Below, in pieces: positions 382-50,299 of a stretch of 64,000 nt of DNA; position 1 is the first letter of the stretch, and each line of letters opens with the position of its first letter. Location: positions 320,001 to 384,000 of the forward strand of contig CAVUKB010000005.1 in NCBI GenBank assembly GCA_963741955.1, in the 5' to 3' direction. The notes under the pieces were generated by a model. It ran no database searches. It had not been told where the DNA came from and was given only the letters and a program-made list of their open reading frames with translations. Origin of the DNA: an uncultured Acidobacteriota bacterium (GTDB lineage Bacteria > Acidobacteriota > Thermoanaerobaculia > Gp7-AA8). The position numbers were made by a program, and so were the translations under genes.

Positions 382-417
382 CCGCTCGAGCTCTCACCCA
401 CTCTCTAACGCCTCTCC

Positions 418-479
418 AGGAAGTTCGGGGTCAGAGCCCCATTCTGAAAGGAAATTCGGGGTCAGAGCCCCTCTCTGAA
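418..479 (+). repeat. Two 31-bp tandem units carrying GGGGTCAGAGC (left arm of orphan array 1)
   Basis: aggaagttcggggtcagagccccattctgaa / aggaaattcggggtcagagcccctctctgaa. Confidence 0.85.
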
Positions 480-709
480 ACTGAGCCGAAAAGCATATTG
501 TGCTGCGCAATCAACCTCTTGTAGAACGATATTCTGCGCCATGGCCAGTTTGCCGACGTTTATTCTGGAAGCGAGCCATCGCGGTGGGCGCCGCACTCCG
601 ACTCGCTACGGCTCCAAGCCGACCGCCGGAGAGCCGGCCGGTCCCTGGGAGTCTGCGCGGTAGGAGCCGTCCTGCTGCGGAGCGCGATCCGCCCTTTCTC
701 CAGACAGTG

Positions 710-909
710 GCTCTGACCCCCATTCCCCTCTGCTGACCCCCATTCCCTCTGTACTGTTCCCCGAAGAGTCGCTCTGACCCCCGACCCCTGCCCCGACCCC
801 TGCCCCGACCCCTGACCCTCTGACCCCGCTTCCGCCGCGAAGAACCAAAGGTGTCGCGCTCTGACCCCCATTCGTGCTGTGACCCCATTCGTGCTGACCC
901 CATTCGTGC
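710..909 (-). repeat. Irregular array of (GCTC)TGACCCC copies (right arm of orphan array 1)
   Basis: gctctgacccc at 710, 771, 858; ctgacccccattccc x2; tgacccc(c)attcgtgc x3; cgacccctgccc stutter at 781-827. Confidence 0.85.
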
Positions 910-12247: not shown

Positions 12248-12296
12248 ATGAACCGTGAATGACTTCGCAGATCGCAATCGTTCAGTGTGCGTTCAT
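12248..12296. promoter_or_regulatory. Putative inverted pair of OmpR-type direct-repeat boxes in a divergent promoter
   Basis: ATGAA-N6-ATGAC on + (12248-12263) and ATGAA-N6-CTGAA on - (12281-12296), both with 11-bp period. Confidence 0.35.
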
Positions 12297-12404
12297 CTCG
12301 CGAAGCATGTAATCGATGCAGCAGGCATCCGGTCGTGGTCCAGGTGGGGCCACCTGCACCCGACGCCATTCCCGGTCGGACACGAAAGAGAGGGAGATCG
12401 CGCA

Positions 12405-13256
12405 GTGATCGTGAGACGCAGCTTGAACCTTCTTCTTGCAATTACGTTGACGGTGTCGGCCGCGTCGGCGGCTGAGCTCTCTCCGGGCGACTCGCAAGAT
12501 CCTTCAGTTCCGAGCGCGAGGTCCAGCCGGTCGAATCCCGTGGTTCGGGAGCTCAGACGCTACGAGCGCGACGCGATCTCCATGGCAAAGGCTCCGGCGC
12601 ACTGGGATCGCCACACGTGGCTCCGATTCGCCGAAGGGACGGGGGCAGTGGCGACGGTGTTCGCGGCGGACAAGCCTCTTTACGACGCGGTGCAGCGCAA
12701 CCGGAATCACACCACGGACGACTTCGCGAGAACGGTCACGCCGTGGGGAGCGAAGCGGGCGGAAGGAATCTCTGCGCTGCTCATCGTGGCGGGGAGCTGG
12801 AGCGGAAACGCGGAGATTCGTGATGCCGGGCGTGACTCTCTGGAGTCAGAGATCTTCGCGGCGGGGATCGTCACCCCGGTCATCAAGCGAATGGTGGGAC
12901 GCTCCAGGCCGATCCAGCAGGAGGGAACGCATTCGTTCCATCCGCTTTCGGGAGCTCACCAGAGCTTCCCGTCCGGACATGCAACCAACGCGTTCGCGTT
13001 CGCGACGGCCGTCGCCGCCCACTCTCACGGATGGCTGGTGCCGACGATCGTCTATTCGATGGCCACGAGCGTCGCGCTTTCCAGGGTGAACGACGAGAAG
13101 CACTTCCCCTCCGACGTCCTGGCAGCGGCACTGATCGGGCGTGCGGTAGCGAAGGGAGTGGTCTACCGTCACCAGCACGGGGCGGCGGCGTGGGAGATCT
13201 CTCCTGCGATGTTCGGTGACGCACCCGGCATTTCCGTGCACATCGTGGTGAGGTGA
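12405..13256 (+). CDS. PAP2-family phosphatase, exported
   Basis: KRMVGRSRP, SFPSGH, SRVNDEKHFPSDV; signal peptide. Confidence 0.92.
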   Translation: MIVRRSLNLLLAITLTVSAASAAELSPGDSQDPSVPSARSSRSNPVVRELRRYERDAISMAKAPAHWDRHTWLRFAEGTGAVATVFAADKPLYDAVQRNRNHTTDDFARTVTPWGAKRAEGISALLIVAGSWSGNAEIRDAGRDSLESEIFAAGIVTPVIKRMVGRSRPIQQEGTHSFHPLSGAHQSFPSGHATNAFAFATAVAAHSHGWLVPTIVYSMATSVALSRVNDEKHFPSDVLAAALIGRAVAKGVVYRHQHGAAAWEISPAMFGDAPGISVHIVVR

Positions 13257-13390
13257 CCGGGGGTCCGAGAAGAGCCGGCTTGTTCATCGTCGAGACCATC
13301 AGGGAGAGGGCGTGCGGGCGTACTCCGAGCGGGCGCGTGGGGCGCCAGTGTCCCGCGGAGTCCGAATTCGTCGCGTCCGCTCGGTAGTCG

Positions 13391-13693
13391 GCAGATCGAG
13401 GGTCAGAGCTCGAGTCAGGGTTAGATCGAGGGTCAGAGCCAGCCTCACCCAAGGCGCGCGGATCGAGCGCGGGTTAGATCGAGGGTCAGCGCGGGTTAGA
13501 TCGAGGGTCAGAGCCAGCCTCACCCAAGGCGCGCGGATCGAGCGCGGGTCGAGGGTCAGGTCGAGGGTCAGAGCTTCCGGTTTCGGTCGACCATTCGGTC
13601 CGCAGATCGAGGGTCAGAGGTCCGATCAACAATCACCTCGTTCCTCCTCTCGGCCGTCCGAATATCGAGAAGAACTCGAGAGGCTCTGACCCC
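13391..13693 (+). repeat. Irregular (GA)TCGAGGGTCAG(AGC) array upstream of the RAYT, plus one inverted copy at 13683
   Basis: About 7 motif copies (13394, 13424, 13477, 13499, 13549, 13561, 13605), a ~53-bp unit present twice, gctctgacccc at 13683-13693. Confidence 0.9.
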
Positions 13694-13906
13694 AACTTTC
13701 GGTTCTCTGTGGCAGATCGTCCCTGGTCCGAGTGAAACGTGCCCCTTCTGGATGATCCGTCGAACGGATATGGACTCTACACATCGTAGACTTGGTGGTA
13801 CGCACGTTTCCATTCCGAGGAGGTTTTCGCCCAATTTCGAACGATCTTGCGTGTCGAGAACGAAAAGCCTCGGAGATCCGGAAACTCCGAGGTACGCTTT
13901 TGTCTC

Positions 13907-14944
13907 ATGAGCCGACCTTTACGGTGTGAATTCGAAGGCGCCTTCTGGCATGTGACGTCCAGGGGCAACAACTCCCAGGACATCTTTCTCGACGACTCGG
14001 ATCGACATAAGTTCCTCGAGCTCCTCGGCATGACGATCGGGCGATACAAGTGGATCGTTCACGAATACATCGAAATGACGACTCACTACCACCTGGTGAT
14101 CGAGACGCCAGAAGTCACGCTGAGCCGAGGAATGCAATGGCTCAACTCGCGCTACGTCGCGTGGTTCAACAAACGGCATGGCCGTCACGGACATCTTTTC
14201 GGAGGACGGTTCAAGGGAATTCTGGTCGACAAGGACGAGTATTTCCTCACTCTCTGTCGATACGTCTCCAGAAATCCGGTCGCGGCCGGAATGCGCAGAC
14301 ATCCGCAACAGTGGCGATGGAGCAGCTATGGTGCAAAGGCGGGCATGAGTACGGTACCCGTCTGGCTGGAGGTCGACAGAACGCTCGACATGTTCGACCC
14401 CAACGATCGTCGCGAAGCGCAACGACTATACCGGAAGTTCATTGATGCGCCATCCGCCGCGGACGACAGGATCTGGGACAAGGTGCGACATCAGGTCTAT
14501 CTTGGAGGCGAAGAGTGGATGGCCAGAATTCAGGCCGAGATCGACAGGAAGCCTAGAAGCGACGATCATCCAAAAGTCCAGCGTCACATCTACCGACCTA
14601 GAATGGACCAGATCATCGAGGCTGTCTCGGAAACCATCGGAATATCCGCGGACGAGATCCGCAACCACCGCGGAGAACCGGCCCGGGCAATCGTCTCGTA
14701 TCTGGCGGTCTACGAGGGAATTCACTTCCATCGTTCTGTCGCGAAGGAGCTCGGCGTGGGAACCAGCCGAGTGTCAGCCCTCGTGAAGGAGTGTCGCACG
14801 AGGATCGAGAATGATCCTGGATTCGCAGAGAGCGTGTCGGAGACGAGAAAACGTCTAGAGAATCGCCCCCCGACGGTTCCGTACGTGCTGCAGCATCAGG
14901 CAAGAGACCTGCTTCGCGAAGCGCCGCCATCTGCGTCGACTTGA
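13907..14944 (+). mobile_element. RAYT/TnpA(Y1)-type HUH tyrosine transposase/nuclease with C-terminal DnaA/TrpR-like HTH
   Basis: MSRPLR, WHVTSRGN, HUH motif MTTHYHL, GHLFGGRFKGILVD, catalytic Tyr in RYVSRNPV, WRWSSY; C-terminal IIEAVSETIGIS...ARAIVSYLA...VAKELG. Confidence 0.9.
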
Positions 14945-15205
14945 TTCCTATCGGAGACCGTTGTCGAGCACGGCAACATCTGCGGTCATTCACGTCGCGC
15001 AGGAGCAACATCCGAATAGAAATGAATTCGATTGTTCTTCGCGACGCTCGCCGCGACGCCGGAGATTTCCTTCGAGCAGGCTGGCGCGATGCCGCTCGCA
15101 GCGAGTTCCAGCGCGCAACATGACCTGAAACGCCCCGTCGAGCCTCCGGCGATCTCCTCTTGACACGATTCGAAACCCACCCCGCCGGATTCCGCACCGA
15201 ACCCA

Positions 15206-15339
15206 GCTCTGACCTCGACCTCTTGCTCTGATCCGGCCCTTGCTTCCTTGCTAACTCAAGCTCTGACCCTCAGACGGCTGCTGACCCTCAGACGGCTGGC
15301 CTTAGCCGGCCTCGGGCTCTGACCCTCAGACGGCTGGCC
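15206..15339 (-). repeat. GCTCTGACCC array downstream of the RAYT, inverted relative to the upstream array
   Basis: ctgaccctcagacggctg x3 (15263, 15281, 15319) plus degenerate gctctgacc and gctctgatcc copies. Confidence 0.88.
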
Positions 15340-15385
15340 CAGTCACTTCCGCCCAGGGGCGGGCCTTCTGATCATCAAAACTGCT

Positions 15386-16186
15386 TCAGAAGCCGAAACT
15401 CACTTTTGCGGCGTACGAGCGCGTCTCCGATTGCGTCGCTTCGATCACAATCTTCGGGATCAGAAGCGAGAGCCGCACACCAAGCGTGTAGCGGCCTTGC
15501 TGGAAGTCGTCCGACAGCGTCACCGGGGCGCCTCCGATGGCGGACGACTCGATGGTCCCCTTCGCGTTCGTCCGGGTGATTCCTGCTCCCGCATACGGCG
15601 TGATCGGACCGATCCCTTTGCTCAGAAAAATTTCCGCACCGTACGTCTTCAAATCGAACACGTCGACTCCCGAGATCTGTCCGTAGCTCGCGCGCACCGC
15701 GAGCGTCGGCTTTACCAGCCCGCCGTCAATGATCGGAACATCCAGCGCACCGCCGATCATCTTCACGTCGCTGTTTGGGATCTTCGCAAAAGATGCCGAG
15801 AGGGTTCCGAAGACGATGCCCTTCGATGCCACGATCCGCGGCACGACGAGATAGCCGCTGGTTGTCAGATCCGATCTCGAAGCGACCGAATTCACCCACC
15901 ACGCCTGGTTGTCGTCGATCGGAATCGCCGTCGCCGCAACTCCGACGTCGAACCCGAGGAGTCCCCCACCCCGCGCGGGATTGACCGGGGTCGGGAAGAT
16001 CGCCTGCGCAACCGTGGCCGAGAACTGGTGGAACTGATCCTGGGTGATGGCGGGATCGAACGTCACGTCACCTGCCCGTGCCACCCCCGCAAACAGCAGA
16101 ATTAGAAGAGCTGCGAGATGTACTCGTTGCTCAAAAGAAATCCTGATGGGGTGAAACCAACTCGATCGCCGCGCTGCTGCAGCCAT
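15386..16186 (-). CDS. Conserved exported protein, probable outer-membrane beta-barrel
   Basis: Hydrophobic signal LAALLILLFAGVARA, beta-rich, ends KVSFGF; start uncertain and overlaps the hemW 3' end. Confidence 0.65.
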   Translation of the reverse strand: MAAAARRSSWFHPIRISFEQRVHLAALLILLFAGVARAGDVTFDPAITQDQFHQFSATVAQAIFPTPVNPARGGGLLGFDVGVAATAIPIDDNQAWWVNSVASRSDLTTSGYLVVPRIVASKGIVFGTLSASFAKIPNSDVKMIGGALDVPIIDGGLVKPTLAVRASYGQISGVDVFDLKTYGAEIFLSKGIGPITPYAGAGITRTNAKGTIESSAIGGAPVTLSDDFQQGRYTLGVRLSLLIPKIVIEATQSETRSYAAKVSFGF

Positions 16187-17235
16187 CCTTCGCTCGTTCC
16201 TCTTCGTGTCCATTCCGTACCCTCCCTCCCGGTCAGTTCGATCAGCTCAGCATACCCGATGCCCGCTGTCTGCCGAAGCGAGAGAAAGATGCGCTCCCGT
16301 CGCTGCTCTTCCTCCCCGAGGCTCTCGGAAAAGACCGTCGGGACCTTTCCCTCGCCCAGTCGTGCGATGTATTCACGGACCTCGCGAGTGTTCGCGAAGC
16401 GTTCCTCGCCCACGAATGAATGACTGCCGAGTCCGACACCGAGGTAGTGCTCACGCTGCCAGTATTTCAGGTTGTGACGCGATTCTTCGCCCGCCCGGGC
16501 GAAATTACTGATCTCGTAGTGCCGCAGCCCCCGACGCTCACTCTCCTCGATCGCATGGAGATACAGCTCCGCCGTCAACTCGTCCTCCGGCAGCGCTGTC
16601 CGTCCGTGTCGTACCTGCTTTTCGAGCGCCGTCCCTACTTCGAGGTCCAGTATGTAGAGCGACAGATGACCGGCCCCTTCGTCAATGGCAATCCTGAGCG
16701 ACTCCTCGAACGACCGCCGCGTCTGGTGCGGCAGCCCGATCATCAGATCGACATTGACTCGGAGACCACTGCGTACCGCGACCCGCAGCGCTTCGATCGC
16801 TTTCGTCCGCCCGTGCCCTCTTCCCAGCGGAAAGAGCTCGGGATCATGGAAGGACTGGACGCCGATACTGACCCGGTCGATTCCCAGCGTCTTCCATCGC
16901 TCGACCGCCTCCTCATCGACGTCTTCCGGATTCGCCTCCAGGCTGAATTCGAGCCCGTCCTGGAGCTGGTACGCGCCTCGGATGGCCGCCACAACCTTCT
17001 CCAGGCCTCCGGCGGACAGTCGAGAAGGCGTCCCTCCGCCGAAGTAGAGGGTCTCGACCCGGGCTCGTTCAGCACGCCGAAGCGCGATCTCGCTCACCAG
17101 GGCACGCACGTAGGCCTCTTCGAGCGACAGATCCGTCGAGATGGCAAAGGGGCAGTAGGAGCAGCGGATCCGGCAGAACGGAAGGTGAACGTAGAGTCCC
17201 AGATGGCCGGACTCGGCCGCCAGATCGAAGTTCAT
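16102..17235 (-). CDS. hemW: Radical SAM heme chaperone HemW
   Basis: LYVHLPFCRIRCSYCPF, YFGGGTPS, YEISNFA, HNLKYW. Confidence 0.92.
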   Translation of the reverse strand: MNFDLAAESGHLGLYVHLPFCRIRCSYCPFAISTDLSLEEAYVRALVSEIALRRAERARVETLYFGGGTPSRLSAGGLEKVVAAIRGAYQLQDGLEFSLEANPEDVDEEAVERWKTLGIDRVSIGVQSFHDPELFPLGRGHGRTKAIEALRVAVRSGLRVNVDLMIGLPHQTRRSFEESLRIAIDEGAGHLSLYILDLEVGTALEKQVRHGRTALPEDELTAELYLHAIEESERRGLRHYEISNFARAGEESRHNLKYWQREHYLGVGLGSHSFVGEERFANTREVREYIARLGEGKVPTVFSESLGEEEQRRERIFLSLRQTAGIGYAELIELTGREGTEWTRRGTSEGWLQQRGDRVGFTPSGFLLSNEYISQLF

Positions 17236-20966: not shown

Positions 20967-21415
20967 TGCGCATGTCCCGCATCCTCTCCTCGGTTCTCCT
21001 CGTCGCTCCGCTCGTCGGGTGCAACCCGGCGGTGCGAACACCGCAGCCTGCGGCGCAACAGGTCCGGACGATCGAGAACACTCCGATCGACGGCATTCCC
21101 ATCGAACAGCCTCCGACCACCGAACCGGTGCAGACCACCACCGCTTCCGCCACGACCGCTGCGGCGGGCAACGAAAAGGGACGTGACGAGGGGCCCGGAA
21201 TGAAGACCGGCCTCCCTCCGATCAATCCCAAGACTCTCCCCTTTTCTCCTCCCATCGCCATGGATCCGGTCGACGGCGCCAAGATTGCGATCACTCCCTC
21301 CACCCCCTACGTGGAGTACAAGGGGAAGTACTACTACTTCGGTACGCGGGAAAACGAGCGTGCGTTCGTCGCCGATCCGGAGAAGTATCTCCACGGCCAG
21401 CTGGTGCACTTCTAG
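20963..21415 (+). CDS. Lipoprotein with C-terminal YHS/TRASH-like domain
   Basis: Lipobox LVGC; DPVDG...YKGKYYYFG...AFVADPEKY. Confidence 0.75.
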   Translation: MMRMSRILSSVLLVAPLVGCNPAVRTPQPAAQQVRTIENTPIDGIPIEQPPTTEPVQTTTASATTAAAGNEKGRDEGPGMKTGLPPINPKTLPFSPPIAMDPVDGAKIAITPSTPYVEYKGKYYYFGTRENERAFVADPEKYLHGQLVHF

Positions 21416-21445
21416 CCCGTCACGGAGAGCCGTCTCCGTCGGGCG

Positions 21446-21832
21446 TGGACCCTCTGATCCGCGTGCGGTGATCGGGGTCAGAGCCGATTGAGTCGATTAC
21501 TGCGGCAGAAGCGGAGCGGGTCGCCAGATTGACTGAGGCTCGCGGGATCCGCGACTTATCTCTTCATCTGGTACAACACCATCCTCGCTGCAGATCCCGT
21601 GATCGGGGAAAGCAGGGTCAGAGCCGATTGTATGCCTGGACCCTCTGATCCGCATGCGGTGATCGGGGTCAGGGTGATCGGGGTCAGAGCGCATTACGCG
21701 GTGATCGGGGTCAGAGCCGATTGAGTCGATTACTGCGGCAGAAGCGGAGCGGGTCGCCAGATTGACTGAGGCTCGCGGGATCCGCGACTTATCTCTTCAT
21801 CTGGTACAACACGATCCTCGCTGCAGATCCCG
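21446..21832 (+). repeat. Orphan GGGGTCAGAGC array 2 with a 135-bp direct duplication
   Basis: ggtgatcggggtcag x4 plus cagggtcagagccgattg; 21465-21599 matches 21698-21832 with one mismatch; tggaccctctgatccgc at 21446 and 21637. Confidence 0.9.
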
Positions 21833-21962
21833 CCGAGCGGCATTCGCTTCCAATTCCGGTTCGTCCTTCCCGCGCGATCCTCCCCTTCGGCCGCTCCGGG
21901 CGAAACAGGACGTGAACTACGAGACCATGCCCGGGAGGCGGACGGCGGTGAACGATCGGCAC

Positions 21963-50213: not shown

Positions 50214-50299
50214 TGGTGCCCGAGGTGGGATTCGAACCCACACGACCTTGCGGCCGGCGGATTTTGAGTCCGCTGCGTCTGCCGTTCCGCCACTCGGGC
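50214..50299 (-). tRNA. tRNA-Leu(CAA)
   Basis: GCCCGAG acceptor, anticodon arm GCGGA-CTCAAAA-TCCGC, long variable arm, TTCGAAT, encoded CCA; TGcTAGACT -10 upstream. Confidence 0.97.

Follow-up and report, generated by a model that had tools for sequence, protein, structure and literature searches.

The names TIRYT and TIRtron were introduced in 2013 for RAYT-like genes that are flanked by terminal inverted repeats (TIRs), many of which carry the sequence GGGGWSAS (Di Nocera, De Gregorio and Rocco 2013, BMC Genomics 14:522, PMC3733652). In that study the TIR families are called 'moderately abundant' and are said to be 'organized as REPs in dimers or clusters'; a sharply defined Acidobacteria group is recognized among the TIRYTs. 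In this report we analyse a locus of an uncultured Acidobacteriota bacterium, contained in a window of 64,000 nucleotides (nt) (C5:320001-384000 of the study genome, G000; positions given without a contig name refer to this window), in which a gene encoding an HUH nuclease with a DnaA-like helix-turn-helix (HTH) tail is bracketed by arrays of short repeats that face inward. We are highly confident that this locus is a TIRtron, its gene being a TIRYT of TnpA-Y1 subclass 2.1 (RAYT Group 1), and we find that the arrays represent partial duplications, made locally, of the repeat tip together with its outer flank, and that the duplicated units tend to end directly after the sequence GGGWCA.

In a later classification, TnpA-Y1 subclass 2.1 took in 20 of 26 TIRYTs (Quentin, Siguier, Chandler and Fichant 2018, PMC6006769). 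According to that paper, the C-terminal extension of subclass 2.1 proteins resembles Bac_DnaA_C, HTH_23 or HTH_28, the motif Y-x3-NP is common to class 2 TnpA-Y1 proteins, no REP-like sequences are reported beside subclass 2.1 genes, and the repeat consensus is unlike the DnaA box, a point on which its authors call for more analysis; the target of the DnaA-like domain and the mobility of the genes are left open there. All but one of the 292 Group 1 RAYTs of Bertels, Gallie and Rainey (2017) fall in subclass 2.1, and Group 1 genes are described as flanked by 16-mers with about 12 occurrences (PMC5581495).

The locus belongs to a described class of repeat-flanked HUH genes

A single intact open reading frame (13847-14944, + strand), with its likely start at the ATG at 13907 and its stop codon ending at 14944, encodes a protein of 345 amino acids, P0001, and sits between two convergent host genes. 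P0001 carries the HUH motif H60-Y-H62 (nt 14084-14092) and the catalytic residue Tyr119 (nt 14261-14263), the latter within the sequence YVSRNP (residues 119-124); all 40 aligned homologues have H60, H62, Y119 and N123, and P124 is kept in at least 90%. Pfam identifies a Y1_Tnp domain (E 4e-8, 33.8 bits, cut-off 23). As a single sequence the C-terminal part matches Bac_DnaA_C weakly (E 0.027), and a 40-sequence profile searched against PDB matches the DnaA structures 2hcb and 1l8q over residues 223-310 (E 4e-4). Foldseek searches with an AlphaFold (AF2) model of P0001 (pLDDT 85.2) returned TnpA-REP (4er8_A, E 2e-6, TM score 0.75 on the target), the TnpA proteins of the IS200/IS605 elements IS608 and ISDra2, which have the Y1 HUH fold (TM 0.56-0.67 on the targets), and, for the C-terminal part, two structures of DNA-bound DnaA domain IV, 3pvp_B (TM 0.89, root-mean-square deviation (rmsd) 1.3 over 95 columns) and 1j1v_A (TM 0.86), the predicted HTH superposing on DnaA domain IV at an rmsd of 1.3-1.5. 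The first-pass annotation, made from the letters of this DNA, read the gene as encoding a complete Y1/HUH protein that has a DnaA-like HTH at its C terminus besides, and the family, profile and structure matches confirm this reading. A leader, ACTCCGAGGTA, that is conserved approximately 15-25 nt 5′ of the start codon (13870-13906) and is also present at the related loci L002 and L032 is probably a ribosome-binding region.

The locus shares with TIRYTs and TIRtrons a RAYT-like HUH/Tyr protein longer than RAYTs, inverted repeats instead of REP hairpins, the GGGGWSAS tip, repeats that occur singly, in dimers or in clusters, moderate abundance and the existence of an Acidobacteria group; it differs in that its arms are multiplied (7 and 5 copies) with the outer flank co-duplicated, and in that most gene-flanking copies have A for the first G (PMC3733652). 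With subclass 2.1 (2.1.2) and Group 1 it shares Y-x3-NP, a long protein, a Bac_DnaA_C-like C-terminal HTH, few and diverged copies within the genome and flanking words that are modestly repeated, membership being judged from these described features. The locus is accordingly a member of an already described class, with repeats that are unusually multiplied and somewhat degenerate, and adds nothing categorically new. The proposal of the first-pass annotation that it represents a distinct, undescribed system falls away, given its match to the TIRYTs and TIRtrons of 2013 (PMC3733652) and the DnaA_C or HTH tails that the 2018 study already describes (PMC6006769).

Two other groups can be compared with the locus. 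RAYT/REP systems (REPINs; Escherichia coli TnpA-REP, PDB 4ER8) provide the best structural match to the catalytic fold, and they too have a gene bracketed by inverted copies of its own repeat and a variant of the repeat for each paralogue; the relatives L017, L019 and L014 of the studied gene have inverted doublets able to form long hairpins. In contrast to RAYT/REP systems, the studied locus lacks a GTAG- or CGTC-tagged hairpin and hundreds of dispersed copies, contains an extra HTH domain and encodes a protein whose NCBIfam RAYT score is below the cut-off; instead of the high-copy dispersal throughout the genome expected of a REPtron, we found 49 exact 10-mers, 23 of them within 29 kb. IS200/IS605 elements share the Y1 HUH fold, but IS608, which has subterminal hairpins and occurs in multiple identical copies, lacks both inverted terminal repeats and an HTH tail; inverted repeats are present at the studied locus, and its nearest paralogue is 49% identical. 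The flanks thus fit neither GTAG-hairpin REPs nor IS200/IS605 ends, as had been pointed out in the first pass.

Direct and inverted repeat copies flank the gene

Upstream of the gene, GAGGGTCAG occurs seven times on the + strand, with GGGTCAG starting at 13400, 13430, 13483, 13505, 13553, 13565 and 13611 (spacings of consecutive cores 30, 53, 22, 48, 12 and 46 nt). Downstream it occurs three times on the - strand (15263-15271, 15281-15289 and 15319-15327), together with two degenerate copies at 15206 and 15225 that have one mismatch to the 10-mer GGGTCAGAGC (Table 1), so that the earlier count of about seven upstream and about five inverted downstream copies stands if the degenerate ones are included. 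No copy of GAGGGTCAG in the opposite orientation was found in either gene flank. The outer side of the motif is constant within each arm, as had also been noticed: GATCGA precedes five and GGTCGA two of the seven upstream copies, and CAGCCGTCTGA precedes all three exact downstream copies on the motif strand. The inner segments that follow the motif differ in sequence and in length (0-46 nt). In the upstream array, where the copy at 13565 has the fullest repeat body, there is a perfect 57-nt duplicate (13418-13474 and 13493-13549, 100% identity) as well as tandem stutters of 22 nt and 12 nt, and one of the downstream copies is truncated within an 18-nt tandem stutter. The form GGGGTCAG, which fits GGGGWSAS, is found at 13683 and in two clusters that have no gene (428-858 and 21475-21708).

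The motif is non-palindromic, and single repeat units folded as single-stranded DNA (ssDNA) form no notable hairpins (z -0.08 to -2.5 relative to shuffles). The gene-flanking copies carry no GTAG or CGTC tag. Rfam at the gathering score detected a single tRNA (50217-50299) in the whole window, and no match at E <= 1 over 13250-15400 and 21380-21900.

The first-pass annotation had suggested that a domesticated HUH enzyme assembles repeat-spacer arrays here, copying motif plus flank and possibly capturing DNA. The alternation of repeats with unlike segments, the co-copying of the flank and the recurrence of arrays at a paralogue and relatives speak for this suggestion. The segments, however, are irregular: two are the same 57-nt stretch, and others are 0-7 nt long or fragments of repeat or flank. 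A blast search of the whole genome with the three longest inner segments returned nothing beyond the segments themselves, and the array (13380-13700) matched none of 50,697 phage records and 72,556 plasmid records (E <= 0.01). The regular repeats and the unique, similar-sized foreign segments of a CRISPR-like or capture array were not found, and many relatives (for example L026, L029, L030, L032 and L035) have a single clean pair of repeats and no array. Neither the repeat-spacer architecture nor DNA capture survives these comparisons, and we regard an array-building enzyme of this sort as very unlikely.

Short repeats can be mis-assembled, and the genome is derived from a soil metagenome. Logan contigs of sequencing run X1 reproduce 13200-15500 base for base (0 differences) and break only at the perfect 57-nt duplicate; X1 is probably the source sample and therefore not independent data, although the assembler is independent. 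Depth is 4.8 on the junction piece, 12.5 on the 57-nt repeat and 10.6 beside it, figures that would fit a mixture of one-copy and two-copy molecules, one figure per short contig being too weak for a claim of polymorphism. The break and the lower depth of the junction piece are what could be held to indicate an artefact; given the base-for-base agreement, and equivalent arrays at a paralogue and at least 10 loci of other genomes, we find it scarcely credible that the arrays are products of assembly.

Repeat copies are enriched locally

The window contains 29 matches to the 10-mer GGGTCAGAGC with at most one mismatch, compared with 7.3 +/- 2.4 in 100 shuffles (largest 13), so the motif is commoner than composition predicts. 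In the genome as a whole there are 49 exact copies of GGGTCAGAGC, as against 14-17 in five order-2 Markov simulations. Since 23 of the 49 lie in 29 kb (C5:312900-341708), in five intergenic clusters, and the remaining 26 are near expectation, the genome-wide excess is entirely local. The intergenic clustering for which the first-pass annotation proposed a test is therefore present, as a feature of one region rather than of the genome. A looser form of the repeat, GGGTCANNNCTTCG, has 59 copies in the genome compared with 3-6 in simulations, and only 11 of the 59 have a related gene, whole or in fragments, at a distance of 1.5 kb or less, from which we conclude that the broader repeat family is moderately dispersed.

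Two of the gene-less intergenic clusters that share the variant of the studied gene lie within the window (Table 1). The cluster at 390-909 contains stutters of 15-20 nt and a CTGACCC microsatellite. We considered that it might be a deletion derivative of the studied TIRtron and found no support for this: its interior has no similarity to the non-coding flanks of the gene, and no protein remnant was found near it at E <= 0.001. A 32-38-nt stretch inside this cluster (642-691) has approximately 25 further matches across the genome (90-100% identity) and is a small dispersed repeat.

These distributions also bear on whether the repeats could be iteron-like operator arrays, to which the DnaA-like domain binds as double-stranded DNA (dsDNA) for regulation of the gene or local DNA transactions, the nuclease being secondary or lost. 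DnaA domain IV, on which the predicted HTH superposes closely, is a binder of double-stranded boxes, the start codon is preceded by direct arrays at a distance of 290-510 nt, and catalytically conserved genes at low copy with diverged paralogues would be in keeping with such a role. An operator reading does not readily account for motif copies that are also inverted downstream and present in gene-less clusters 13-21 kb away, nor for catalytic residues that are invariant in every aligned homologue, and the repeat consensus is, according to the 2018 study, unlike DnaA boxes (PMC6006769). We consider this reading improbable.

Related genes carry inward-facing repeats of their own

Relatives of P0001 at E <= 0.001 number 3806, mostly from metagenome bins of Acidobacteriota and Thermoanaerobaculia; the best is 58% identical, and several are annotated as RayT or transposase. 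Matches at E <= 1e-20 are present in 29 of 41 genomes searched (G000 included), with no match from another genus above 46% identity. The study genome itself contains 15 matches, several of them fragments. The best of these, L002 (C4:620711-621754, 49% identical), has its own variant of the repeat, GGGGTCAGG, in five direct copies upstream and two inverted copies downstream, with more clusters of this variant 5 kb upstream (all +) and 3 kb downstream (all -). Sixteen of the 35 copies of GGGGTCAGGCC in the genome are within 9 kb of L002; simulations give 1-4 copies.

In a first set of 23 full loci from other genomes, a pair of GGGWSAS repeats faces inward at 12 and outward at three, with totals of 29 inward and 11 outward copies upstream and 25 inward and 11 outward copies downstream. 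The first-set, stutter and tree counts in this report include L017 (G022) and L037 (G030), which come from unpublished genomes; without these two the first set has 10 of 21 inward and 2 of 21 outward pairs. In a replication set (20 loci from five genomes, 13 of them full), 11 of 13 loci have an inward pair and one an outward pair, with 26 inward and 2 outward copies upstream and 34 inward and 6 outward copies downstream. Homologues in both sets thus show the inward-facing flanks for which the first-pass annotation proposed to look. More distant relatives (for example L026, L029, L030, L032 and L035) have one clean inverted pair of 25-27 nt that begins GGGGTCA, one copy approximately 60-90 nt 5′ of the start codon and the other immediately behind the stop codon, and closer relatives often have doublets or arrays (L014, L015, L019, L022, L046, L052, L055 and others).

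In a quick tree built from 29 proteins, 23 of which carried a label, the 4-nt variant that follows GGGWCA needs 11 changes, a number equalled or undercut in 8 of 1000 label shuffles. The sister paralogues L001 (GAGC) and L002 (GGCC) differ in variant, each variant being clustered near its own gene, and L021 and L022 differ as well. The idea that the motif covaries with the protein thus receives a modest signal, one that kinship alone could give; variants specific to each paralogue and found near its gene would fit gene-specific recognition.

One TIRYT subfamily in the study genome has a conserved upstream region of approximately 200 nt that starts with its own repeat (variant GGGC). Its copies are at C12:4377-5285, C4:15414-16334, C4:16553-17005 and C7:445344-446252, and N-terminal fragments are at C4:39767, C4:179917, C10:358931 and C1:136059. 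With full, tandem and fragmentary copies, this subfamily looks more like an insertion sequence than the studied gene does.

Duplication units tend to end directly after GGGWCA

To define the units of duplication we took all pairs of neighbouring same-strand GGGTCA cores no more than 60 nt apart in G000 and at loci L014-L041 (n=142). Pure tandem duplications account for 23 of the 142 pairs: six (GGGGTCA)n microsatellites, two overlapping cores, one G-run, two long duplications and 12 with a period of 12-22 nt. In 11 of the 12 short-period events the unit ends 0 or 1 nt after GGGTCA, and in the exception it ends 3 nt after. This window contributes five of the 12 events; two of the 12 are one structure seen twice, and one is from the unpublished G030, without which the count is 10 of 11. 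In the replication set, 8 of 11 events end within 1 nt after GGGWCA; of the exceptions, one lies within an array of three copies and the other two extend 7-8 nt further inward. Were the core placed at random in the unit, approximately one event in five would be expected to end at this boundary. What recurs is thus a unit of GGGWCA(S) preceded by 5-17 nt of outer flank, which adjoins a fuller copy on its outer side.

The arrays resemble BIMEs and REP clusters, in which, according to the 2013 study, repeat units are reiterated in tandem with flanking DNA of variable length (PMC3733652); they differ in that the unit is a non-palindromic repeat tip and in that the boundary of duplication is fixed at one position of the motif. 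This boundary bears on a passive origin of the arrays, in which the locus would still be a TIRtron and its minisatellite-like arrays would have arisen by replication slippage or unequal exchange with the nuclease uninvolved, the outer flank being mere baggage of the tandem unit. Perfect tandem duplicates of 12, 15, 18, 22 and 75 nt are of the kind that slippage leaves, as are G-rich (GGGGTCA)n and CTGACCC microsatellites elsewhere, and length polymorphism is weakly hinted at by the lower depth of the contig that spans the junction of the 75-nt duplication (4.8, compared with 10.6 next to it). Passive slippage, however, would be expected to leave the core anywhere in the unit, yet the 3′ end falls within 1 nt of GGGWCA in most events of both sets, and the boundary is the same at independent loci in several genomes. 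We consider a passive origin possible but not probable. Slippage of the polymerase against a protein roadblock bound to the motif would give the same boundary without cleavage.

A proposed working of the enzyme

Because the duplication units end after GGGWCA, we read this position as the candidate working site of the enzyme, the pattern being suggestive and not proof. In the mechanism that we infer, the C-terminal DnaA-domain-IV-like HTH would bind the repeat and the N-terminal HUH/Tyr119 centre would nick a single strand at the tip of the repeat, on the 3′ side of GGG(G)TCA(G) and directly next to it. The arrays would then be scars left where cutting at the nick site recurred and was followed by imperfect repair, whether through faulty rejoining, fill-in of staggered breaks or re-insertion of the element at its own target as in IS608, and the repeat variant would have seeded the gene-less intergenic clusters within approximately 21 kb on either side. 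The presence of same-variant clusters within this distance points to action that may be preferentially local.

In IS608 the tetranucleotide that serves as cleavage site and target lies just outside the end of the element, which inserts next to the tetranucleotide flanking its left end. This arrangement is a useful analogy for a cut that would fall right after GGGTCA(G).

We rate the chance that the arrays are scars made by the enzyme, a reading drawn from sequence patterns, as about even, and we think it likely that a TIRtron with such scars and local action is, taken as a whole, the best explanation of the locus. More tentative, and in our judgement rather doubtful, is the proposition that the stutters map the cleavage or strand-transfer site of TIRYTs just 3′ of GGGWCA(S) and, with the clustering of variants, indicate that TIRYTs are still active, mainly in cis within approximately 20 kb, re-targeting their own tip. 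As regards what the first-pass annotation had proposed for the enzyme, the stutter boundaries suggest that it probably acts at or near the motif; the accompanying notion of array building by repeated copying of motif plus flank is not sustained.

Several observations weigh against this account. The first set served both to notice the boundary rule and to count it, and the replication loci, which belong to related genomes, are not independent; each set has its exceptions (1 of 12 and 3 of 11), and in two longer duplications (25 and 37 nt) the unit takes in the whole repeat before it ends. An inward pair was not detected by regular expression at 11 of 23 and 2 of 13 homologue loci, although two of the 11 (L029 and L030) show a clean pair by eye, the gene-end estimate having overrun. 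P0001 scores 48.7 bits with the NCBIfam RAYT equivalog NF047646, below its 80-bit cut-off. The 10 gene-flanking array copies read AGGGTCAG, matching GGGGWSAS at 7 of 8 positions with A replacing the first G, and since the flanking repeats are degenerate relative to the family consensus this copy may be inactive. The 58 copies of GGGTCANNNCTTCG on contigs of at least 100 kb divide into 25 on the G-rich strand, 25 on the other strand and eight in regions of weak GC skew, so that nothing points to lagging-strand targeting as in IS608. Finally, our literature searches on TIRYT, on Y1_Tnp with Bac_DnaA_C and on HUH with DnaA found no experiment on any TIRYT.

If TIRYTs do act mainly in cis and re-target their own tip, as in the more tentative proposition, the behaviour of the enzyme would be unlike both the genome-wide dispersal of REPINs by RAYTs and the peel-and-paste transposition of IS200/IS605 elements, in a family that is widespread, as the number of relatives of P0001 alone attests. 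The stuttered arrays of this locus and of its relatives provide a cheap, testable prediction, namely that an HTH seated on the repeat body would direct the nick to the position right behind GGGTCA(G), and they suggest action that would be local rather than genome-wide.

Features of the window and other repeats of the genome

The coordinates of the gene, its domains, the repeat copies and the neighbouring host genes are collected in Table 1.

Table 1 Features of the studied locus and its surroundings, in window positions
Feature	Position	Strand	Basis or context
TIRYT gene, intact, 345 amino acids	13907..14944	+	Open reading frame analysis, family searches, alignment
Y1/HUH catalytic domain, residues 6-139; HYH 60-62, Tyr119 in Y-x3-NP	13922..14323	+	Pfam, NCBIfam, alignment, 4er8_A
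DnaA-domain-IV-like HTH, residues 223-310	14573..14836	+	Weak single-sequence match, profile, AF2 model, Foldseek
Upstream array: 7 direct copies, outer flank GATCGA or GGTCGA plus GGGTCAG(AGC)	13391..13620	+	Motif search, self-comparison
Single inverted copy, GGGGTCAGAGCC	13680..13692 (10-mer 13683-13692)	-	Pairs with the copy at 13565 to give a long ssDNA hairpin, z -3.1
Downstream array: 3 inverted copies of CAGCCGTCTGA plus GGGTCAG(AGC), and 2 degenerate copies	15206..15336	-	Motif search, self-comparison
Gene-less intergenic cluster, same variant: 2 copies + (428, 459) and at least 5 copies - (710-885), facing	390..909	.	Motif search
Gene-less intergenic cluster, same variant: 4 exact copies, 15-nt stutter	21475..21717	+	Inside a 233-bp tandem duplication
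PAP2 phosphatase	12255-13256	+	Host gene beside the TIRYT gene
DUF6588 protein	15386-16213	-	Host gene on the other side of the TIRYT gene

An element of approximately 135 nt, present in the window at 21478-21600 and 21711-21832, has 81 blastn matches in the genome, mostly in tandem arrays with a period of 190-290 bp, and has no Rfam match at E <= 1. Other sites are C4:567220-568513, C5:890110-891733, C6:11072-14989, C15:10589-12787 and C7:1207190-1207700; in the C4 array a near-perfect palindrome of approximately 75 nt lies between units, and one array of the element is directly downstream of the TIRYT paralogue L005. G-rich microsatellites built of the repeat tip, either (GGGGTCA)n or CTGACCC x8, are found at 774-827 in the window and at C1:114176-114206 and C4:124706-124726. 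A second repeat family has GGGTCA inside a short inverted repeat and forms arrays of up to nine copies with a period of 159-184 bp; outside the window it occurs at C5:1030619-1032258, C5:1094067-1096372 and C1:188324-188750.

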